Source of the DNA: Alphaproteobacteria bacterium
GTDB lineage: Bacteria; Pseudomonadota; Alphaproteobacteria; UBA828
Direction of reading: 5' to 3'
NCBI GenBank assembly: GCA_963422645.2
Contig: CAXXVO010000022.1
Span: 1-32,797 of the forward strand
DNA length: 32,797 nucleotides
A program made the translations under genes and the position numbers. Shown piece by piece: positions 1,939 through 31,116 of the stretch (positions are counted from its first letter, which is position 1; every line of letters starts with the position of its first letter). Under the pieces are notes generated by a model that was given only the letters and a program-made list of their open reading frames with translations, made no database searches and was not told where the DNA came from.

Positions 1939-2703
1939 ATGGCCAAGATACTCGTAATCGTTCCCTTCGCCTTCGACGAGAAGGGGCTCGCAAACCGGCG
2001 CTCGCAGCTGGATTCGGTCTCGTTCGGCCCGGATATCGAATTCGAATTTCGGGGCGTCAAGGCGGGGCCCGCGCTGCTCGACTGCTACCACGACTACAGC
2101 ATGGCCGACATCTCGCTCTTCGAAGCGGGCCTCACGGCCCAGGACGACGGCTACGACGCCGTCTGCATCGACACCATGAGCGATTCGGGCATGAACGCCA
2201 TGCGCTCGGTGCTCGACATTCCGGTGATCGGGCCGGGGCGGGCCTCCTTCATGATGGCGCTCATGTTCTGCAACCGCTTCTCGGTGGTAACCCAGTGGGA
2301 CGGCTGGATCCCGCTCTACAAGAAGAGCAGCGTCGAGTACGGCGTCGCCGACCGGCTCGCGTCCGTCCGCTCCATCAACGTGATGCCGGACGTGGAGAAC
2401 CTGCTCGGCGGCAAGGAGGAGGTGGTCTTCCCCAAGCTGGTGGAGTGCGCCACGCGCTGCATCGAGGACGACGGCGCCGAGCTGATCCTACTCGGCTCCA
2501 CCACCATGCACCAGGCGCACGGCCACATGGCCGAGAACCTGCCGGTACCAGTCATCAACCCCGGCCCGCTCACCTACAAGCTCGCCGAGTGCGTGCTGGG
2601 ACTGGGGCTCAGCCACAGCCGCAAGGCCTACCCCAGCCCAACAGTGCCGAAGCCCGCCATGGTCCATGCCATGATGGATGGCGCTGCGACCGTCGGCGAC
2701 TGA
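1939..2703 (+). CDS. Asp/Glu/hydantoin racemase family protein
   Basis: DGYDAVCIDTMSDSG, DIPVIGPG, ILLGSTTM, PVPVINP motifs; GGAGAGGG RBS. Confidence 0.85.
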   Translation: MAKILVIVPFAFDEKGLANRRSQLDSVSFGPDIEFEFRGVKAGPALLDCYHDYSMADISLFEAGLTAQDDGYDAVCIDTMSDSGMNAMRSVLDIPVIGPGRASFMMALMFCNRFSVVTQWDGWIPLYKKSSVEYGVADRLASVRSINVMPDVENLLGGKEEVVFPKLVECATRCIEDDGAELILLGSTTMHQAHGHMAENLPVPVINPGPLTYKLAECVLGLGLSHSRKAYPSPTVPKPAMVHAMMDGAATVGD

Positions 2704-2721
2704 CGAGAGGAGACGCAGGGG

Positions 2722-3513
2722 TTGGCCGGACGGCTGGAAGGCCGCGTCGCGCTCGTCACCGGCGCCGGGAAGGGCCTCGGCGCGGCAATGGCGCGCGGGA
2801 TGGCGGCGGAGGGCGCGCTGGTCGCGGTCAGCGATATCGACACGAAAGGCGGCACGGCGCTCGTGGCGGAGCTTGAGGCGGAGGGCCACGAGGCGATGTT
2901 CATCGCCCTCGACGTGACCAGGGAGGCCGACTGGGAGGCCGCGATCCCGGCCGTGATCGACCGCTTCGGCGGCCTCGACATCCTGGTCAACAACGCAGGC
3001 ATCGTCGTCGTCGAGCCGGTCGAGGTGGCCACGCTGGAGAGCTGGCGCAAGACCATGTCGGTCAACCTCGACGGCGTCTTCCTCGGCACCAAGCACGGTA
3101 TGGCCGCGATGCGCGCAGGCGGCTCGATCATCAACCTCTCGTCGATCATGGGCTTTACGAGCACGCCGGAGCTCACTGCCTACAGCGCATCCAAGGGAGC
3201 GGTCAGACTCTTCACCAAAGGCGCGGCGCTGGATGGCGCCAAGGATGAGCGCCGCATCCGGGTGAACTCGATCCATCCCGGCTACATCCATACTGAGATG
3301 ATGGAGGCCACCTGCTACAGCGAGTACGGCAGCCTGGAAGCGGGGCTCGCGGCGATCGCCAAGCGGCACCCGATCGGGCGCGTGGGCCAGCCGCGGGATA
3401 TCGCTAACGGCGCGATCTTCCTCGCGTCCGAGGAATCGAGCTTCATCACCGGCACGGAGCTCGTGATCGACGGCGGCTATTTGGCCGTGGGCGGCTACGA
3501 CGTCCAGCCGTAG
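2722..3513 (+). CDS. Short-chain dehydrogenase/reductase, copy 1 (TTG start)
   Basis: TGAGKGLG, NNAG, YSASK, NSIHPG; AGAGGAG RBS 9 nt upstream. Confidence 0.93.
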   Translation: MAGRLEGRVALVTGAGKGLGAAMARGMAAEGALVAVSDIDTKGGTALVAELEAEGHEAMFIALDVTREADWEAAIPAVIDRFGGLDILVNNAGIVVVEPVEVATLESWRKTMSVNLDGVFLGTKHGMAAMRAGGSIINLSSIMGFTSTPELTAYSASKGAVRLFTKGAALDGAKDERRIRVNSIHPGYIHTEMMEATCYSEYGSLEAGLAAIAKRHPIGRVGQPRDIANGAIFLASEESSFITGTELVIDGGYLAVGGYDVQP

Positions 3514-3569
3514 GCCTGCGCACGACGGCCCCGGCGACCGGCGACGATTGACGAGAGGAGATGCAGGGA

Positions 3570-4361
3570 ATGGCAGGACGACTGGAGGGCCGCGTCGCGC
3601 TCGTCACCGGCGCCGGCAAGGGCCTCGGCGCTGCAATGGCGCGCGGGATGGCGGCGGAAGGCGCGCCTGTCGCGCTCAGCGATATCGAGGAGGAGGGCGC
3701 CAAGGCGCTCGCGGCGGAGCTCGAGGCAGGCGGCGCCGAGACCATGTTCATCGCCCTGGACGTGACCAAGGAGGCCGATTGGGAGGCCGCGATTCCGGCC
3801 GTGATCGATCGCTTCGGCGGGCTCGACATCCTCGTCAACAACGCGGGCGTCGGCATCGTCGAGCCGCTCGACGAGGTCACGCTGGAGAGCTGGCACAAGA
3901 CCATGTCGGTCAATGTCGACGGCGTCTTCCTCGGTACCAAGCACGGTATGGCCGCGATGCGCGCGGGCGGCTCGATCATCAACATCTCGTCGATCCTGGG
4001 CTTCACGAGCCGAGCGGCGCTGTCGGCCTACAGCGCGTCCAAGGGGGCGGTCAGGCTCTTTTCCAAGGGGGCGGCGCTGGACGGCGCCAAGGACGAGCGC
4101 CGCATCCGGGTGAACTCGATCCACCCCGGTTACATCCATACCGAGATGATGGAGGACACCTGCTACCGCGACTACGGCGGCCTGGAAGCGGGGCTCGCGG
4201 CGCTCGGCAAGCAGCACCCCATCGGCCGCGTGGGCAAGCCGGAGGACATTGCCAACGGCGCGGTCTTCCTCGCGTCCGAGGAATCGAGCTTCATCACCGG
4301 CACGGAGCTCGTGATCGACGGCGGCTATCTGGCAGTGGGCGGCTACGACGTCCAGCCGTAA
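3570..4361 (+). CDS. Short-chain dehydrogenase/reductase, copy 2
   Basis: Same motifs; colinear paralog of copy 1 at an 848-bp offset. Confidence 0.93.
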   Translation: MAGRLEGRVALVTGAGKGLGAAMARGMAAEGAPVALSDIEEEGAKALAAELEAGGAETMFIALDVTKEADWEAAIPAVIDRFGGLDILVNNAGVGIVEPLDEVTLESWHKTMSVNVDGVFLGTKHGMAAMRAGGSIINISSILGFTSRAALSAYSASKGAVRLFSKGAALDGAKDERRIRVNSIHPGYIHTEMMEDTCYRDYGGLEAGLAALGKQHPIGRVGKPEDIANGAVFLASEESSFITGTELVIDGGYLAVGGYDVQP

Positions 4362-4415
4362 GCGGAGCAGCACACAGCCCCTGTCGTAATTTGTCAGGGG
4401 GATCGCAAAGAAACA

Positions 4416-4527
4416 CCCCACCTCCCCCTGTCCCCCTCCCCCCGAAGGGCGGAGGGGGAACGCAACGGCGACGACCTTATCTCCCTCTCTTCCCCTGAGG
4501 GGAGGAGAGGGCCGGGGTGAGGAGGGG
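4416..4527. repeat. Bipartite palindromic REP-like element, copy A
   Basis: CCCACCTCCCCCTGTCCCCCTCCC..GAGGGGGAACG, spacer, CTCCCTCTC..GAGAGGGCCGGGGTGAGG; a reverse-complement copy lies at 18407-18517. Confidence 0.85.
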
Positions 4528-4556
4528 CCCAGTCCGAAGCAAGCAAAGGTGTTGAC

Positions 4557-5573
4557 ATGAACGCGGCCATCAATCGCCAGGTCAGGCTCGCGGCGCGGCC
4601 GGAGGGCATGCCGAGGGTAAGCGACTTCTCTCTGGCCGAGGAGCCGGTGCTCGAGCCTCGCCGTGGCCAGGCGCTGGTGCGCGTGCTCGCGCTCTCCCTC
4701 GACCCCTACATGCGCGGGCGCATGAGCGCGGCCAAATCCTACGCGGCGCCGGTCGGCATTGGCGACGTGATGACCGGGGGCGCGGTGGGCGAGGTCGTGC
4801 GCTCGGAGGCCGCGGGCCTCAAGGAAGGCGACCTGGTGGAGGGCATGTTCGGCTGGCAGGAGTACGCGCTCTGCTCGCGGGGCACGGCGCGGGTTCTGCC
4901 GGAGTCTCCCTATCCGCCCTCCTACGCGCTCGGCATCCTCGGCATGCCCGGCGCCACCGCGTACTTCGGCCTACTGGAGGTAGGCCGCCCGCGCCCCGGC
5001 GACACGGTGGCGGTCTCCGCGGCCTCGGGCGCCGTCGGCGCGGTGGTGGGGCAGATCGCCAAGATCGGCGGCTGCCGCGTGGTCGGCACGGTCGGCAGCG
5101 ACGAGAAGGCGGCCTACATCACCGAGCAGCTGGGCTTCGACGCCGCGATCAACTACCGCACCGCCAACGACCTCGGCGCCGCGCTCGACGAAGCCTGCCC
5201 CGACGGCATCGATGTCTACTTCGACAACGTGGGCGGGCCCGTGACCGACCGGGTGATGAACCGCCTCGCCTTCAAGGCGCGCGTGGTGGTCTGCGGCAAC
5301 ATCCACCACTACACGCTGACCGAGGCCTATGTTGGCCCGAGCCACCTGCGCTCGATCCTGATCAACCGGGCGCGGGTCGAGGGCTTCCTCGTGCTCGACT
5401 GGCTGGAGCGCTATCCCGAGGCCTTCGCGCGGCTCACGGCGTGGCTCGACGACGGCTCCATGACCTATAGGGAGCACGTTATCGAAGGCCTGGAGAACGC
5501 GCCGGAGGGGCTCGGCATGCTCTTCGAGGGGCGCAACTTCGGCAAGCTCGTGGTCAAGGTGGCGGAGCGCTGA
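4557..5573 (+). CDS. NADP-dependent oxidoreductase (CurA/YncB/prostaglandin reductase-like MDR)
   Basis: LSLDPYMRGRM, GMPGATAYFGL, SAASGAVG, YFDNVGG, GRNFGKLVV. Confidence 0.92.
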   Translation: MNAAINRQVRLAARPEGMPRVSDFSLAEEPVLEPRRGQALVRVLALSLDPYMRGRMSAAKSYAAPVGIGDVMTGGAVGEVVRSEAAGLKEGDLVEGMFGWQEYALCSRGTARVLPESPYPPSYALGILGMPGATAYFGLLEVGRPRPGDTVAVSAASGAVGAVVGQIAKIGGCRVVGTVGSDEKAAYITEQLGFDAAINYRTANDLGAALDEACPDGIDVYFDNVGGPVTDRVMNRLAFKARVVVCGNIHHYTLTEAYVGPSHLRSILINRARVEGFLVLDWLERYPEAFARLTAWLDDGSMTYREHVIEGLENAPEGLGMLFEGRNFGKLVVKVAER

Positions 5574-19643: not shown

Positions 19644-20708
19644 CTAGTGCGAGTATTCGTTGTCCAATTCAATGGAGTGAATGATGGTCTCACCAGATGA
19701 TTTCGAATAGGACAAAGCTAGGCTGATTGGCGTCTCAATCGTTTGGCTGACCGCCGCCACCCATTCATTCCAGTCGCGATCAATGACAAATAAGTCTTTA
19801 TGTTCGCGCATATAGAGGTCAAATTTTTCAATAAATCCACTTGCTTCTATTTCGACGGATCCGGATAGCATAATGAGGTACTCACCAACTTCCACCTTTT
19901 TGATTTCCCAATCCTCTATAGCAACACTGTGCACAGCATCAATTGTAACTTCGTTTTCGAATTGTAAGCCTTCTATTCCATAAGCCGAATACGAAGACAG
20001 GTACTCCTCGACTTCTTCGCGGGCTCTAGCTAAAAGGTTTCCTAAATTGAACTCCGGGATATACGCGGGATCAATGCGTTCCAAGAGAGGTGAAATCCTT
20101 TCGCCAAAAAAATCGCGCAGACCCGTGTAGACCGTTACCATTTTGCCTTGGTTGCGAATACCTTCTACCAAATGAGCATGCAGAACCCACTCTCGATCCT
20201 TCTTCTCGCAAAAATCTTTGACGTTATTAGTTAAGAAGTATATTTCTATAGTGCCCTCAGATAACTCATTAATTTCTGAAGCGATGCTATTCCACAACAA
20301 GTAATCCTTAAATCCTGCTCCATTCTCTTTGAAGGGCTTCTTGCGTTCATATGAGGCCCTCACGATTTCCTCGGGCCTCAACTCCGGATATGGCAGAATT
20401 TCCACTCCATAATTTCGCAAAATTTCCTCAAACCAACTTGAAAATAATACTTGTTCCTCTAGGAAATTTGTATCCGTAATCAGACCTTTGCCGGCCAACT
20501 TGTTTATATCTTCTCTCAGCTTGCAAAATTGCTCATGTTTATTCTCTAGCGCAAGCCTAAATTGTCCTGAAGTCTCGTCCAAAACTATCTGCGGAATTGA
20601 TAAACGCAAGCCTAAGAATCGCGACGACTTTAGGAGTGAAGAGGCAATTGAAGAGCGAAGGTAATTTTCTCCAATTACAATGCTTGTGTCAAGAAAAATA
20701 ATCATCAC
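19644..20708 (-). CDS. PIN-like domain protein (DUF4935-like), AT-rich
   Basis: IFLDTS, IPQIVLDE, KPF..GFKDYLLW, FLTNNVKDF acidic PIN motifs; composition far more AT-rich than neighbours. Confidence 0.78.
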   Translation of the reverse strand: MMIIFLDTSIVIGENYLRSSIASSLLKSSRFLGLRLSIPQIVLDETSGQFRLALENKHEQFCKLREDINKLAGKGLITDTNFLEEQVLFSSWFEEILRNYGVEILPYPELRPEEIVRASYERKKPFKENGAGFKDYLLWNSIASEINELSEGTIEIYFLTNNVKDFCEKKDREWVLHAHLVEGIRNQGKMVTVYTGLRDFFGERISPLLERIDPAYIPEFNLGNLLARAREEVEEYLSSYSAYGIEGLQFENEVTIDAVHSVAIEDWEIKKVEVGEYLIMLSGSVEIEASGFIEKFDLYMREHKDLFVIDRDWNEWVAAVSQTIETPISLALSYSKSSGETIIHSIELDNEYSH

Positions 20709-20921
20709 AAGTGTTCCCTATCGGAAACGTGGATGGGCGAAATTCAAAGACTATCCGTAACTGCCCAGGTACCCCCTCTCTCTTATGGAACAAGCCAGTT
20801 CCTTTTGCGTCAACGCCCCCACGCCGCGGGGGTGCCTACTCTCTTGAGCGCGAGAGGATGATGAACGCCGCGTCGCGAACAAGATGAGAGGACAGCGATA
20901 CTCAGGATGAGCCGGAGAAGT

Positions 20922-22460
20922 TCAGGAGCGCAGTATAGGGATCAGCTGCATCGGTTCCGGGTGCGCCAGGATTTGCAGGATGTTCCAGCCTTGCTTTCGA
21001 GCGGTGACGATGACGCTGCGCATTCCGGCGAAGTTGCAGGCGCCTTGCAGGGAGCGGAAGCCGCCTGAGATCTTCTCATGCACTTTGTTCATACGGATGT
21101 CACGCTCCGCCTCGTTATTCGTGAACGGCGTGCGCAGGTCGGTGAGGAAGCGCAGGCAGCCCTCCTTATGCTTTTGAAGGCGGCGCGCGAGGTTGTGGCC
21201 GATGCGGCGTTTCTTTCGCCCTCGCTTTGCGATCTGGAGCGGCGGTTGGGCCTCATGGAAGGCGATGGCTTCTTCGAGGATACGGTCCCATGCCCTTGAG
21301 ATGCGGGCCACCAGGGAGGCGGGGACTTGACGGTCTTTCTCACGGGCGAAGCGGGCGGCCCTGCGCGCGCGCTGAAGCAGGCGGTGCATGCTCGCCGCCC
21401 ATTCCTCCTTCTCGATGTCGATCAGGGCCTGGAGTTCGCGCAGGTGATGTGCGTTGCAGGCGCCGTGGCGGACGCCCTTGATGGTGAAGTAGGGGGCGAA
21501 GTCGTCGTGGACGAGGATGCCTTTCAGGTTCTTTTCGACATCGCCGCGTCCCTCGCCGATGCGCAGGACGGTGAGCAACGGGGTGCACAGCACATGGAGC
21601 CAGCGGGTACGGGCGGCGATACGCAGGCCGGTCTCGTCGAGGTGCTTGACCGGCGCCTGCGTGCGGATCAGATCGGCGACATGGTCGAGGAAGCCCTCGA
21701 AGCGCTGCGCTGTGCGCCGGCCCATGGCGGCGATCGTGGCAGTGGAGATGGACACCGCGAAGATGTCGCTCATGAGTTCGGCCAGACGCTTCTCGGGCAC
21801 GAACTGGGCGTACAGCAGGTAACTCACCCAAGCGGTGATGCGAGGGCCGTACTGGACCGGGGCGGTGACGCCCGGCGGGAAGGCGGCTCGTGTCAGCGTG
21901 CCGCATGCGCCGCAGAGGCAGCGATGGGCGCGGTGTTCGGTGACCTCGAGAGGCTGCGGCTCGGGTACGTCGAAGACCTGCCGACAGGCGGGCGCGCCTT
22001 GCCGGTCGGCGTCCGAGAGCTCGACGCCACAGCCGGAACAGGTGGAGGGGTGGTGATCGACGACACGGTCCGGGCTGTCGCTCCGCGCGAGGGTGGTTCC
22101 CTTGTGGCCGGGCTGGCCGCCACTGGGCCCGCCGGACTTTCCGCGCTGGCTTTGGGTGCGCCTCTGGGCTCCGCTTTTCTTCTTGAGCCCGTCGCTGGCG
22201 GGGGGCTTGCTGCTTGTGGTGCTGTTGAGGGCCGCGCTGCGCTCGAGTTCGGCGATGCGCTCGCGCAGGGCCGCGTTCTCCTGCTCGAGTGCGGCATTTT
22301 CCCGGGCGAGCGCGGTGGCTGATCGCAGCAGCCCCTGCCCCCATTCCCGGACGGCAACGACGACAGTGGTTGCGAGGGATGATGGCTCGAGAAGCTCCTT
22401 CAGGCAGCAGAAGGCCTCGTTACGGGCGGCGAGGTCTTCGTGCCAGTGCGACACCGTCAC
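20922..22460 (-). CDS. IS66 family DDE transposase
   Basis: Coiled coil, SSKPPASD, GGQPGHKG, CxxC zinc finger, HLDETG, CNAHHLREL, FTNNEAERDIR; GTG start overlaps MTase stop (GTGA). Confidence 0.93.
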   Translation of the reverse strand: MTVSHWHEDLAARNEAFCCLKELLEPSSLATTVVVAVREWGQGLLRSATALARENAALEQENAALRERIAELERSAALNSTTSSKPPASDGLKKKSGAQRRTQSQRGKSGGPSGGQPGHKGTTLARSDSPDRVVDHHPSTCSGCGVELSDADRQGAPACRQVFDVPEPQPLEVTEHRAHRCLCGACGTLTRAAFPPGVTAPVQYGPRITAWVSYLLYAQFVPEKRLAELMSDIFAVSISTATIAAMGRRTAQRFEGFLDHVADLIRTQAPVKHLDETGLRIAARTRWLHVLCTPLLTVLRIGEGRGDVEKNLKGILVHDDFAPYFTIKGVRHGACNAHHLRELQALIDIEKEEWAASMHRLLQRARRAARFAREKDRQVPASLVARISRAWDRILEEAIAFHEAQPPLQIAKRGRKKRRIGHNLARRLQKHKEGCLRFLTDLRTPFTNNEAERDIRMNKVHEKISGGFRSLQGACNFAGMRSVIVTARKQGWNILQILAHPEPMQLIPILRS

Positions 22461-23122
22461 GTGTCTTCGGCCTCGACGGCCATCATGGCGGCGAGCACGG
22501 CGAGGCGTTCGCCCGGCGGCAAGGCCTGGTAGCGCCGGCCCCAGTTGGCTGCCTTGCGCTTGATGCGCTGGCGGTCGGTGAAGTTCCGGCCTGCGTGGCT
22601 GGCCCAATGCATCCGGTCGGGGGCGTAGTTGAACCAGACGACCTCGGTTCGCACCAGACCCTGGGTCGTGACCTGCAGCGCCAGCCGGCGCCATCCCGCC
22701 AGCACCTCGTCATAGAGCGCCGACGGATGGCCCGAGATCATGACCTGGCAGGGCAGAGCCTTGAGCAGCGCGAGAAGCGCGACGTGGCCGGCCTCCTCGT
22801 ACTCGAAGCGGTAGCGCTGCGCCGAGCGGCGGGTCGCGTGCAGATAGGGCGGATCGCTGTAAACCAGCTCCGGGCCCAGGAACGGGAACGAGGCCAGGAA
22901 GTCATGGGCACAGCCGTGAACCAGATCGACCGGGTAGTCGCAGACGAAGGCCTCGAGCGCCTGCGCATCGCGGTCGATGCCGATCGAACGCACGGCCGGC
23001 GGCTTGCGCTTCATCAGCGCCCCGCCCCCAAGGTGGCTTTCGATGTAGACGGAGTGCGGCGGCATCAGCGCAATCAGCGCTTGGCACAGACCTGCTGTCG
23101 CCTTCGAGCCGAAATACCCCAT
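22457..23122 (-). CDS. DNA adenine (N6) methyltransferase, Dam/D12-like, compact
   Basis: N-terminal YFGSK, SAM-binding YIESHLGGGA, GID, catalytic YSDPPY, MISG, RTEVVWFNY. Confidence 0.88.
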   Translation of the reverse strand: MGYFGSKATAGLCQALIALMPPHSVYIESHLGGGALMKRKPPAVRSIGIDRDAQALEAFVCDYPVDLVHGCAHDFLASFPFLGPELVYSDPPYLHATRRSAQRYRFEYEEAGHVALLALLKALPCQVMISGHPSALYDEVLAGWRRLALQVTTQGLVRTEVVWFNYAPDRMHWASHAGRNFTDRQRIKRKAANWGRRYQALPPGERLAVLAAMMAVEAEDT

Positions 23123-23519
23123 GGACCGCTCCCGTCACGCGAGAGAGCAGTCCATAGTCCCGCAACTCTATGAGGTCAAGAACCAATCGCGGTGGCAGAA
23201 CCAGGCCGCGGCCGCCGCCATAATCACCGTCCTCAACTCAGGATTGGGGTACCTGGGTAGTTACCAAATTGTCGCCGGAAGCAGAACTCGCAAACAGGAA
23301 ATTAGTGCGGCACCGGTGGCCCTAACACTAGGCAAAGTGGACGCGTCGATGTACATGGCGGCGATAGGAGAATCGTCCCACGATGAGGCGAAAATCTGCC
23401 TGCGATGCGTCGCCTGAAGCGCCGTTTGCTGCAAGAGACTTCGTGCGCGGCGCGTCGAGTCGCGGCACGAAGTGCGGATGACGTAGGACGAGCGTAGAGA
23501 GGCCGAAAGGAACCGGCGA

Positions 23520-29228: not shown

Positions 29229-31116
29229 GTAACTGCCCAGGTCGTCTGATTTGTCATTTTGGGCCAGTGGATTGAGGCGTTTCTCGTTCGGAGTTGGTGG
29301 AAAGGGCTTGACGGGAATTTCGGGAAATGACTCAACAACGACATGAGCAATCCCGAGTCGCCGCGCGGCCCTTCGACGGGAGCAGCGCCCGAAACGCCCG
29401 CGCAGAAGATCGCCCGCCTGGAGGAGGAGAACGCCCGGCTTCGGGAGGAAAATGCCTGGCTTCGGCAGCAGAACGCGCGGCTGGAAGAGCAAGTCGCGCG
29501 TCTCGTCGAGCGCATCGAGGAGTTGGAGCGCCGTCTCGGCCTCAACAGCGGCAACAGCGGCAAGCCGCCTTCGAGCGATGGGCTGAGGAAGCCGAATTCG
29601 AAGCGGCGAACCCGAAGCCTGCGCGGCAAATCGGGCCGCAAGCCCGGTGGCCAGCCCGGCCACAAGGGCAAGACGCTGCGCCGCGCCGATCACCCGGATC
29701 GGGTGAAGGATCACGTCCCGGCTTCCTGCAAGGGATGCGGTTCGCCGCTTTCGGACGCGGCCAGGGCGGGAACGCCCGTCGCCCGCCAGGTGTTCGATCT
29801 GCCCGAGCCGAGCCCCCTGGAGGTGACCGAGCACCGGGCGCATGCCAAGTGCTGCGGGCATTGCGGGACGGTGACCCGGGCGGCGTTCCCCGACGGGGTG
29901 TCGGCGCCGGTGCAGTACGGCCCGCGCATTGCCGGGGTGGCGGTCTACCTTCAGCACGCTCACTTCCTGCCGGAGGATCGGCTGTCGCAGGTGATGGCCG
30001 AGCTCTTCGGCGCGCCGGTGACGGCTGCGACGTTGGCGACGATGAGCGAGAGGGCGGCCGAGCGGCTGCGGGACGCGGCCTTGCACATACAGGACCTGGC
30101 GGCGGGCACGGCGCGGGTGAAACACATGGACGAGACCGGCTTGCGGATCGGCGGTCAGACGCAGTGGCTTCATGTGATCTGCACGCCGCTGCTGGCGGCG
30201 TACCGGGTCAGCGGCAAGCGCGGCGCCCTGCTCTCGGGTGTCTCCGGCATCGTCGTGCACGATCACTGGAAGCCGTACTTCGCGATGGAAGGGGTGGAGC
30301 ACGGCCTGTGCAACGCCCATCACCTGCGGGAGTTGCAGGCGCTGGTGGACATCGAAGGGGAGGCTTGGGCCCGGCGGATGCAGCAGCTCCTGCGCCGAGC
30401 CAATCGCGCCGCCCGCATCGCGCTGGACAAGGATATCGCCGTTCCGGCGAGGCTTGTGGCGCTGATCGAGCGCCGATACGACGAGATCATCGCCGATGCG
30501 CTGGCCTTTCACGAGAGCCAACCACCGTTCTCGCCTGGCAAGAGGAAGAAGCGCCGGAAGCGAAGGATCGGTCACAATCCGGCCTTGAGGCTGCGCGACC
30601 ACAAATGCGCGGTGCTCCGGTTCCTGATCGACCTCGAGGTCGGGTTCACGAACAACGAGGCCGAGCGCGACCTTCGGATGATGAAGCTGCGCCAGAAGAT
30701 CTCCGGGGGCTTCCGGTCCGCGCAGGGGGCCGAGAACTTCGCCATCCTGCGCAGCGTCATCACCACCGCCAGAAAGCAGGGCTGGAATATCATCGAAGCC
30801 CTGACCAGCCCATCGGATCGGCTCATCGCCACCGTCAAGTGCGCGTAAGCTCACCTGGCACGGGTTCTCCAACAGCGGAGCCATTCTCATAAACGATCAT
30901 GGTCGACGCCGTGCTGGACCACCCCATAGAATGAAAATCGGTGCCCGTCGCGCGGGCGGACTTCGGGCCACATCGGGGTAGCTTACCGGTCGCAGTCCGC
31001 AAGAGGGGCATCGTGAGCTGTGAAACCCGGCGACCCCAGAGGAGCACACGGGCGTCGCGTGGGTAGCGTTGTGCCGAATCCCAGAGAATTTTCACAGCAA
31101 GAACCTGGGCAGTTAC
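29229..31116 (+). mobile_element. IS66-family (single-transposase, ISBst12-like) insertion sequence
   Basis: Perfect 14-bp TIRs GTAACTGCCCAGGT; 8-bp target duplication GAAGCTTG at 29221-29228 and 31117-31124. Confidence 0.96.
29343..30848 (+). CDS. IS66 family DDE transposase
   Basis: SGKPPSSD, GGQPGHKG, CxxC, HMDETG, CNAHHLREL, FTNNEAERDLR. Confidence 0.95.
   Translation: MSNPESPRGPSTGAAPETPAQKIARLEEENARLREENAWLRQQNARLEEQVARLVERIEELERRLGLNSGNSGKPPSSDGLRKPNSKRRTRSLRGKSGRKPGGQPGHKGKTLRRADHPDRVKDHVPASCKGCGSPLSDAARAGTPVARQVFDLPEPSPLEVTEHRAHAKCCGHCGTVTRAAFPDGVSAPVQYGPRIAGVAVYLQHAHFLPEDRLSQVMAELFGAPVTAATLATMSERAAERLRDAALHIQDLAAGTARVKHMDETGLRIGGQTQWLHVICTPLLAAYRVSGKRGALLSGVSGIVVHDHWKPYFAMEGVEHGLCNAHHLRELQALVDIEGEAWARRMQQLLRRANRAARIALDKDIAVPARLVALIERRYDEIIADALAFHESQPPFSPGKRKKRRKRRIGHNPALRLRDHKCAVLRFLIDLEVGFTNNEAERDLRMMKLRQKISGGFRSAQGAENFAILRSVITTARKQGWNIIEALTSPSDRLIATVKCA

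Follow-up and report, generated by a model that had tools for sequence, protein, structure and literature searches.

Why should an insertion sequence (IS) carry, immediately upstream of its transposase gene and overlapping it, a gene for a protein with the fold of the DNA adenine methyltransferase Dam? The question is raised by a complete 2,508-bp element of the IS66 family at positions 20757-23264 of a 32,797-nucleotide stretch of alphaproteobacterial DNA (GenBank assembly GCA_963422645.2, contig CAXXVO010000022.1; hereafter the window), in which both genes lie on the minus strand. From the copies of the element, its relatives in other genomes and the properties of the upstream protein, we consider it probable that the first gene belongs to a portable promoter-operator-autorepressor cassette that controls expression of the transposase. 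The layout of the element is as follows.

20757..20775, unstranded: terminal inverted repeat (TIR) at the transposase-distal end, GTAACTGCCCAGGTACCCC, one arm of an inverted-repeat pair, 19 nt
20922..22460, minus strand: IS66-family DDE transposase, 512 amino acids (aa), GTG start, identified by PF03050 and NF033517
22457..22460, minus strand: GTGA overlap, with the GTG start of the transposase over the TGA stop of the first gene, read directly
22457..23122, minus strand: Upf31-family protein, 221 aa, containing VYSDPPYLH, identified by Upf31 similarity and a Dam-like Rossmann fold
23246..23264, unstranded: TIR at the promoter-proximal end, reading GTAACTACCCAGGTACCCC inward, the other arm of the pair, 19 nt

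The two arms (20757-20775 and 23246-23264) match at 18 of 19 positions (95% complementary), the element ends start with GTAAC, and every one of the 36 full-length copies in the genome is bordered exactly by these two repeats. In run X1, contigs assembled from short reads stop at 20757 and at 23264, and no circle or excision joints were seen in these contigs, which stop at the element ends. Terminal inverted repeats and target duplications of 8 bp are the values of the IS66 family. Only two genes lie between the ends, that for the 221-aa DPPY protein and then that for the transposase; tnpA and tnpB of the classical three-gene IS66 type are absent between the ends, and the upstream gene is Upf31-like instead. 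A first-pass annotation of the window had described inverted ends of 19 bp enclosing exactly two genes, an intact-looking 221-aa open reading frame (ORF) with DPPY, and a GTG/TGA overlap, and each of these descriptions is borne out.

The window's genome (5.9 Mb in 23 contigs) holds 36 full-length copies with at least 99.7% identity, and fragments are numerous too, which brings the totals to 76 for left ends and 62 for right ends. Perfect 8-bp direct repeats flank 22 of the 36, every one at a different site, so that copies with both ORFs, the same ends and different flanks exist as the first-pass annotation had anticipated for a mobile element. All 36 retain an intact 221-aa ORF, and 34 an intact transposase ORF; not one full-length copy lacks the DPPY gene. 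A one-off deletion junction, which could have brought the two genes together at this locus, is ruled out by the 36 full-length copies. The element is an active, repeatedly transposed, high-copy IS66-family insertion sequence of the single-transposase type, a subgroup whose name we take to be ISBst12-like as we understand its definition. Among same-genus genomes a match was found in 6 of 20, and a close match in only 3, a patchy distribution that fits a horizontally acquired element.

The window's own copy has no 8-bp duplication, its flanks being GACTATCC and CAAATTGT, which is explained by recombination between copies. The right flank CAAATTGT at 23265-23272 is identical to the flank on the left of a partial copy (C14:145404; the other flank of the window's copy being 20749-20756), and the copies at C6:391794-394300 and C9:531722-534228 have reciprocally swapped 8-bp flanks (ATGTATTC/GACTCTCC versus GACTCTCC/ATGTATTC). 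Such exchanged flanks are signatures of recombination between IS copies that rearranges the genome.

Three further kinds of element accompany these copies. The same two-gene IS is also represented by a second lineage, with about 20 copies of approximately 2,434-2,461 bp (for example C8:733609-734268, C8:847084-849544 and C11:32097-34557); its first gene is 86-88% identical and has a GTG start, several copies have 8-bp duplications, and two have an internal TAG. The window also contains a second IS66-family element (29229-31116, 1,888 bp), whose 501-aa transposase (29343-30848, plus strand) is 60% identical to that of the 2,508-bp element. The terminal 14 bp (GTAACTGCCCAGGT) are common to both elements; the second has no upstream gene, as the first-pass annotation had also stated, and no dyad of the kind described below. 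Copies of the 2,508-bp element are often nested in copies of this second element, with 8-bp duplications. Finally, a third element of about 2.5 kb, encoding a helix-turn-helix (HTH) and Transposase_29 (PF21804) protein in two frames, lies inside the 2,508-bp element at locus L101 (C18:2800-8000, about positions 2189-4700). The same junction occurs in at least nine other copies, where the insertion point falls within the transposase gene (element bases 433-438), and a few further insertions lie at other positions close by; the recurrence suggests a target preference or the spread of a composite.

The transposase matches PF03050 (E = 4.4e-41; cut-off 23.1 bits) and NF033517 (E = 3.6e-86, 289.7 bits against a cut-off of 180), and also carries DUF6444 and zf-IS66 domains. 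The automatic ORF call begins at an ATG farther upstream; it is the GTG at 22460 that is conserved as the start, and the first ~50 residues after this GTG are conserved as protein, in this sub-lineage only. The GTGA overlap is kept at all 61 junctions of the IS66a type, the window's sub-lineage, in other genomes (61/61), and at the level of sequence the transposase is translationally coupled to the first gene. The arrangement is looser in other element types, with a gap of ~20 nt in L086 and of 68 nt in the type with a DDE_5 transposase. The ratio of nonsynonymous to synonymous substitution rates (dN/dS) is 0.22-0.30 for the transposase (10 pairs) and 0.08-0.35 for the 221-aa gene (55 pairs), which is thus under purifying selection at least as strong. 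A complex prediction for the 221-aa protein with transposase residues 1-200 scored 0.00; it gives no answer and is neutral as evidence.

The first-pass annotation named the 221-aa protein a DNA adenine methyltransferase, an identity that is unsupported as stated. Its score against the Dam family TIGR00571 (22.1 bits against a cut-off of 114.85) is below the family threshold, searches of Pfam, including PF02086, returned no match at E ≤ 0.01, and a sequence search of the Protein Data Bank (PDB) gave no match; furthermore, no methylation was detectable with the 45%-identical Upf31, described below. Methyltransferase profiles from phages and defence systems do match (phrog_56, 2e-17; PADLOC MTase_II, 5.6e-22). 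The AlphaFold (AF2) model (predicted local distance difference test, pLDDT, 92.7; predicted template modelling score, pTM, 0.87) has a Rossmann core and long helices at 181-199 and 203-220; residues 90-93 form the DPPY motif and residues 181-220 a C-terminal two-helix domain. The top Foldseek matches to this model are E. coli Dam and DpnM, with E values of ~5e-7 to 1e-6 and template modelling scores for the query (TMq) of 0.50-0.55.

In an alignment of 47 diverse family members, G5, H23, G32, D90, P91, P92 and H113 are invariant, and K7, G34 and Y93 are conserved in at least 90%. At the level of sequence, the protein therefore has the S-adenosylmethionine (SAM)-binding and DPPY motifs of the D12 class. 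Two canonical D12-class genes of 283 codons (PF02086, above the cut-off), unrelated to the IS, are also present in the genome, at C16:163107-163820 and C8:99660-100373.

The closest studied relative is Upf31 of the IncP-1beta plasmid pBP136, with 45% identity and 63% positives over residues 1-218 of 221 (E = 8e-68), a similarity that spans both DPPY and the C-terminal domain. Upf31 has been characterised by Elg et al. (Mol Biol Evol 2025, msaf062; bioRxiv 10.1101/2024.02.05.579024). There, pBP136 with upf31 failed to restore GATC methylation in a dam- strain as judged by digests, and SMRT (single-molecule real-time) sequencing of ER2796, an E. coli strain free of methylases, expressing Upf31 gave no modification (Elg et al., msaf062). 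The 68-bp region upstream of upf31 is an active promoter that Upf31 itself represses, from 4.76 to 0.09 units of xylE, and repression requires the C-terminal domain, residues 173-225; the likely operator consists of inverted CAGCATCG repeats, and KorB is a proposed partner (Elg et al., msaf062). The terms 'transposase' and 'insertion sequence' are absent from the published paper (Elg et al., msaf062). By analogy, the 221-aa protein probably dimerises through its C-terminal helical domain.

The two proteins thus have in common full-length identity of 45%, DPPY, a C-terminal helical domain and a Dam-like fold, and each gene has an inverted repeat of 5-N10-5 form inside its own promoter. Upf31 is encoded by a stand-alone gene of a plasmid backbone and has the half-site CAGCATCG, whereas the gene described here lies inside an IS, with the half-site CATAG and a transposase coupled downstream. 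The relevant features upstream of the 221-aa gene are these.

23151..23179, minus strand: promoter-like layout with a 17-nt spacer, from sequence reading and alignment
23179-23174, minus strand: -35 element TTGACC, sequence reading
23156-23151, minus strand: -10 element TATGGA, sequence reading
23153..23172, unstranded: operator-like dyad CATAG-N10-CTATG, across the spacer and the start of the -10, unique in the window and conserved
23172-23168, minus strand: upstream half of the dyad, CATAG, sequence reading
23157-23153, minus strand: downstream half of the dyad, CTATG, overlapping the -10, sequence reading
23129..23133, minus strand: putative Shine-Dalgarno-like GGGAG, 6 nt before the start codon
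23122, minus strand: start codon ATG of the 221-aa gene, sequence reading

The upstream DNA of 16 elements, representing all three IS types, was aligned before the operator of Elg et al. was known to us. Although the mean column identity of this alignment is 44%, TTGAC and, after it, (C)ATAG and CTAT(G), set ten variable bases apart, show little or no variation. The window contains this dyad once, where none is expected (100 shuffles), and in 84 of 91 loci the pattern of promoter plus dyad is found a single time, immediately before the gene; elements of the IS66b type carry TTGACA-17-TATGCT. Plasmid homologues that stand alone, in Xanthomonas, Lichenicola and Photobacterium, are preceded by the same dyad, and upstream of upf31 the geometry is the same, with the half-sites CAGCATCG and CGATGCTG, a one-base variant found in IncP-1; every half-site contains a conserved A (CATAG; CATCG in IncP-1). 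As the dyad is common to IS-borne and plasmid homologues, the operator is a property of the gene family, brought into the IS together with the gene. A search for a second operator with two mismatches allowed gave three matches in the window against 4.4 expected, and in the element the promoter site only. No methylation-type motif common to the termini of the three element types was seen by eye. In two plasmid homologues (L091:3860-3990 and L095:1416-1470) the dyad occurs twice in tandem upstream of the gene, an arrangement that hints at cooperative binding.

Relatives of the 221-aa protein are widespread. A large protein collection contains 3,707 homologues at E ≤ 0.001, the best 120 of which are all at least 70% identical; an exhaustive search gave 5,660 clusters with E ≤ 0.001; and a scan of one genome per species gave 142 relatives, the best 80 of which provide the counts of 80 loci used here. 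These 80 loci come from Alphaproteobacteria (often with many copies per genome), Tectimicrobiota, Chloroflexota, Binatia, Planctomycetota, Acidobacteriota, Bacillota, a bacterium of the candidate phyla radiation (CPR) and Gammaproteobacteria. An IS66 transposase follows the homologue directly in 70 of them, nine of which (L081-L089) combine a first protein that is ~70% identical with a transposase that is 26-31% identical. In another seven the next gene is an unrelated DDE_5 transposase (PF13546, IS701-like; 7/7 on check), and these loci have their own inverted repeats (AGCTCGACTTTGT...) around the transposase; the other three are interrupted by other insertions. Inverted repeats also surround both genes at several IS66-type loci. 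Across the two transposase families, therefore, the first gene lies directly upstream of the transposase and on the same strand in 77 of 80 loci.

Phylogenies of the two proteins differ in shape. The IS-linked first proteins form one clade (support 100/99) in which the DDE_5-linked ones are nested, whereas the gene-bearing IS66 transposases do not form one clade, and gene-less relatives (the window's second IS66 element and three plasmid elements) fall between them. Forcing the gene-bearing transposases into one clade is rejected (approximately unbiased, AU, test p = 9.4e-5, with the caveat of one long branch, L084), so that the gene has either moved between lineages or been lost several times. 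In the plasmid collection, relatives are present on 196 records, all with less than 60% identity and including upf31.0 of IncP-1 plasmids; 134 of the 196 are conjugative. An IS1380 (ISSp1) element was considered as the carrier on Sphingobium plasmids and ruled out, as the downstream neighbours are other genes in three other plasmids.

The family also has long forms, with fusions to C5-methylase, MerR or integrase-SAM domains. In one 317-aa protein, P0163, Upf31-like residues 1-126 are fused to a DDE domain of IS66 type (PF03050, 1.4e-18), probably through an internal deletion of such an element and not by design. Three DDE_5-type elements (L070:3449-6225, L073:3456-6226 and L090:3587-6125) have in addition a small divergent ORF of ~100 aa between the left end and the cassette, with a weak match to DUF3024 (E ~0.002) that is below the cut-off.

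We propose that the cassette works in the following way. A sigma-70-type promoter at the left end would give one bicistronic transcript of both genes, on which the GTGA overlap would couple translation of the transposase to that of the first gene. Probably acting as a dimer, the Upf31-like protein would bind the dyad operator and shut the promoter, as suggested by its studied homologue and by the conservation of the operator. The result would be trans-acting negative feedback, with transposase expression high after entry into a naive cell and falling as copies rise. Because a promoter-plus-repressor cassette would work before any transposase, it would fit unrelated transposase partners. The Upf31 data and the conserved dyad together make autorepression at the promoter the most likely mode of action, and not methylation in the style of Dam and IS10. 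Regulation of the element's own transposition is accordingly the best supported of the three roles suggested by the first-pass annotation, with promoter autorepression in place of the methylation that it had in mind. Its term 'mobile orphan methyltransferase' holds in so far as the gene is mobile and integral to the IS, present as it is in 36 copies; the methyltransferase role, with scores below the Dam cut-offs, is not supported as stated.

Several observations count against autorepression as the full explanation. Repression was measured in E. coli on the 45%-identical plasmid protein, not on that of the window (Elg et al., msaf062). The two genes may not share a single transcript, and an internal promoter for the transposase is possible. 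A consensus promoter scan missed the window's promoter-like site, because its -10 element, TATGGA, lacks the final T. With at least 36 copies in one genome, feedback evidently did not stop a large expansion, and the sister element without the gene has ~50 full-length matches. Since this gene-less sister is the more abundant, the cassette is not required for proliferation, and we infer that it modulates transposition instead. Finally, the SAM-binding and catalytic motifs (G5/K7, G32/G34 and DPPY) are invariant or nearly so across the 47 members; this is hard to fit to a pure DNA binder and therefore points to an enzymatic or SAM-dependent step, for which a SAM-dependent, base-flipping mode of recognition is one possible account.

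The same conservation, which extends over motifs X, I, II and DPPY, would also be explained if the protein were a true SAM-dependent adenine methyltransferase whose sole targets are the adenines of its own dyad, among them the A in position two of the -10. Methylation would then set the IS promoter on or off and replication would reset it, forming a host-independent circuit like that of Dam and IS10. The confidently modelled Dam-like fold, the conserved A in each half-site and the overlap of the downstream half-site with the -10 are all in keeping with such a switch. No kinetic signature of methylation accompanied Upf31 in ER2796 (Elg et al., msaf062); a genome-wide SMRT motif search would, we infer, miss a site of 20 bp that the test genome lacks, and the negative result for this reason leaves room for methylation of the operator. 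Against this, autorepression by binding already accounts for the reporter result, and we regard the switch as unlikely. The same low rating applies to its fuller form, in which each copy would hold a heritable state that is reset by replication or by a new cell, and at least three lineages of transposase would each have captured the cassette on their own, because it lends any IS a timing like that of Dam and IS10 without dependence on the host. A conventional orphan N6-methyladenine (m6A) methyltransferase, carried as a passenger, acting genome-wide on a short motif and either shielding IS-bearing DNA from restriction once it has been transferred horizontally or changing the host methylome, would be consistent with the phrog_56 and MTase_II matches, with the conjugative majority of the plasmid records (anti-restriction genes being common on conjugative plasmids) and with the occurrence of the element in several phyla, as expected of frequent transfer. 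However, the protein falls below the curated Dam cut-offs, is smaller than Dam at 221 aa and superimposes on it with a TMq of only ~0.5, the host already has its two canonical PF02086 genes, and the conserved promoter dyad is left unexplained; Upf31, moreover, gave no methylation in either of the two assays (Elg et al., msaf062). Protection from restriction and alteration of the host methylome are thus the least supported of the roles first suggested for the gene, and a genome-wide methylase kept for restriction evasion, the least consistent with the data, strikes us as distinctly improbable.

The possibility that the cassette represses only itself, with the transposase expressed from its own internal promoter or start and the gene retained merely by lying inside the ends, draws on the gene-less sister element at 29229-31116, which has the same terminal 14 bp and is more abundant, and on the looser spacing in L086 and the DDE_5 type. 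It is hard to square with the conserved coupling (GTGA at 61/61 junctions) and with selection on the gene, which is intact in 36 of 36 copies with dN/dS as low as or below that of the transposase. Gene order is kept in two transposase families, and its capture on separate occasions by different lineages of transposase implies that the element benefits. We consider a mere passenger of this kind very unlikely, and autorepression of a promoter that serves both genes remains the reading we prefer.

Directly abutting the IS in the window is a gene for a 354-aa PIN_12-domain protein (PF16289, 7e-24; 19644-20708, minus strand), for which PADLOC gave no match. This stretch has a G+C content of ~46%, against 61-73% in the rest of the window, and looks like foreign DNA.

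The element can be set against three known kinds of system. With the single-transposase members of IS66 it has in common the DDE_Tnp_IS66, zf-IS66 and DUF6444 domains, the match to NF033517, GTAA ends, 8-bp duplications and the lack of tnpA and tnpB; it differs from them in that a further gene, of 221 aa and with a promoter and operator of its own, separates the left end from the transposase, and in the 50-residue N-terminal extension by which the transposase starts inside the stop codon of the first gene. IS10/Tn10 and IS50 are controlled by Dam, a methylase of the host, through a GATC site. The logic is alike, in that a site over the -10 of the transposase promoter would set the timing and favour activity after entry or replication; here, however, the protein with the Dam fold is encoded by the element, a 20-bp dyad takes the place of GATC, and binding is better supported than methylation. 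IS-encoded repressors include InsA of IS1 and the inhibitor of Tn5, and methyltransferase genes may travel as passengers in other IS families. The concept of the transporter IS (tIS) describes passenger genes inside IS ends (PMC3129680, PMC9330008). As in these cases, a second gene lies inside the inverted repeats, here probably lowering expression of the transposase, but the protein has a methyltransferase fold and the gene is a discrete cassette common to two IS66 lineages and to DDE_5 (IS701-like) elements, not a product of the transposase gene. The coupling and the promoter operator suggest a transposition regulator rather than an unrelated tIS passenger. A literature search, with ISfinder and REBASE outside its scope, found no account of this gene in an element of the IS66 or IS701 type; while IS with extra genes and IS-encoded repressors are already known, an autorepressor cassette with a methyltransferase fold that is shared among IS families appears to be undescribed.

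If the proposal is correct, thousands of transposase-adjacent genes annotated as 'DNA adenine methylase' would become regulators, and counts of orphan methylases in metagenomes would be corrected. Upf31, an unexplained plasmid protein, would also be linked to IS biology by a concrete prediction, and these elements would offer a natural system in which to ask why a DNA-binding repressor keeps a SAM/DPPY pocket, whether for base flipping, for SAM as a co-repressor or for methylation of a single site. The control of transposition itself would gain a portable promoter-operator-repressor cassette, built on a methyltransferase fold and at work in unrelated IS families across several phyla.

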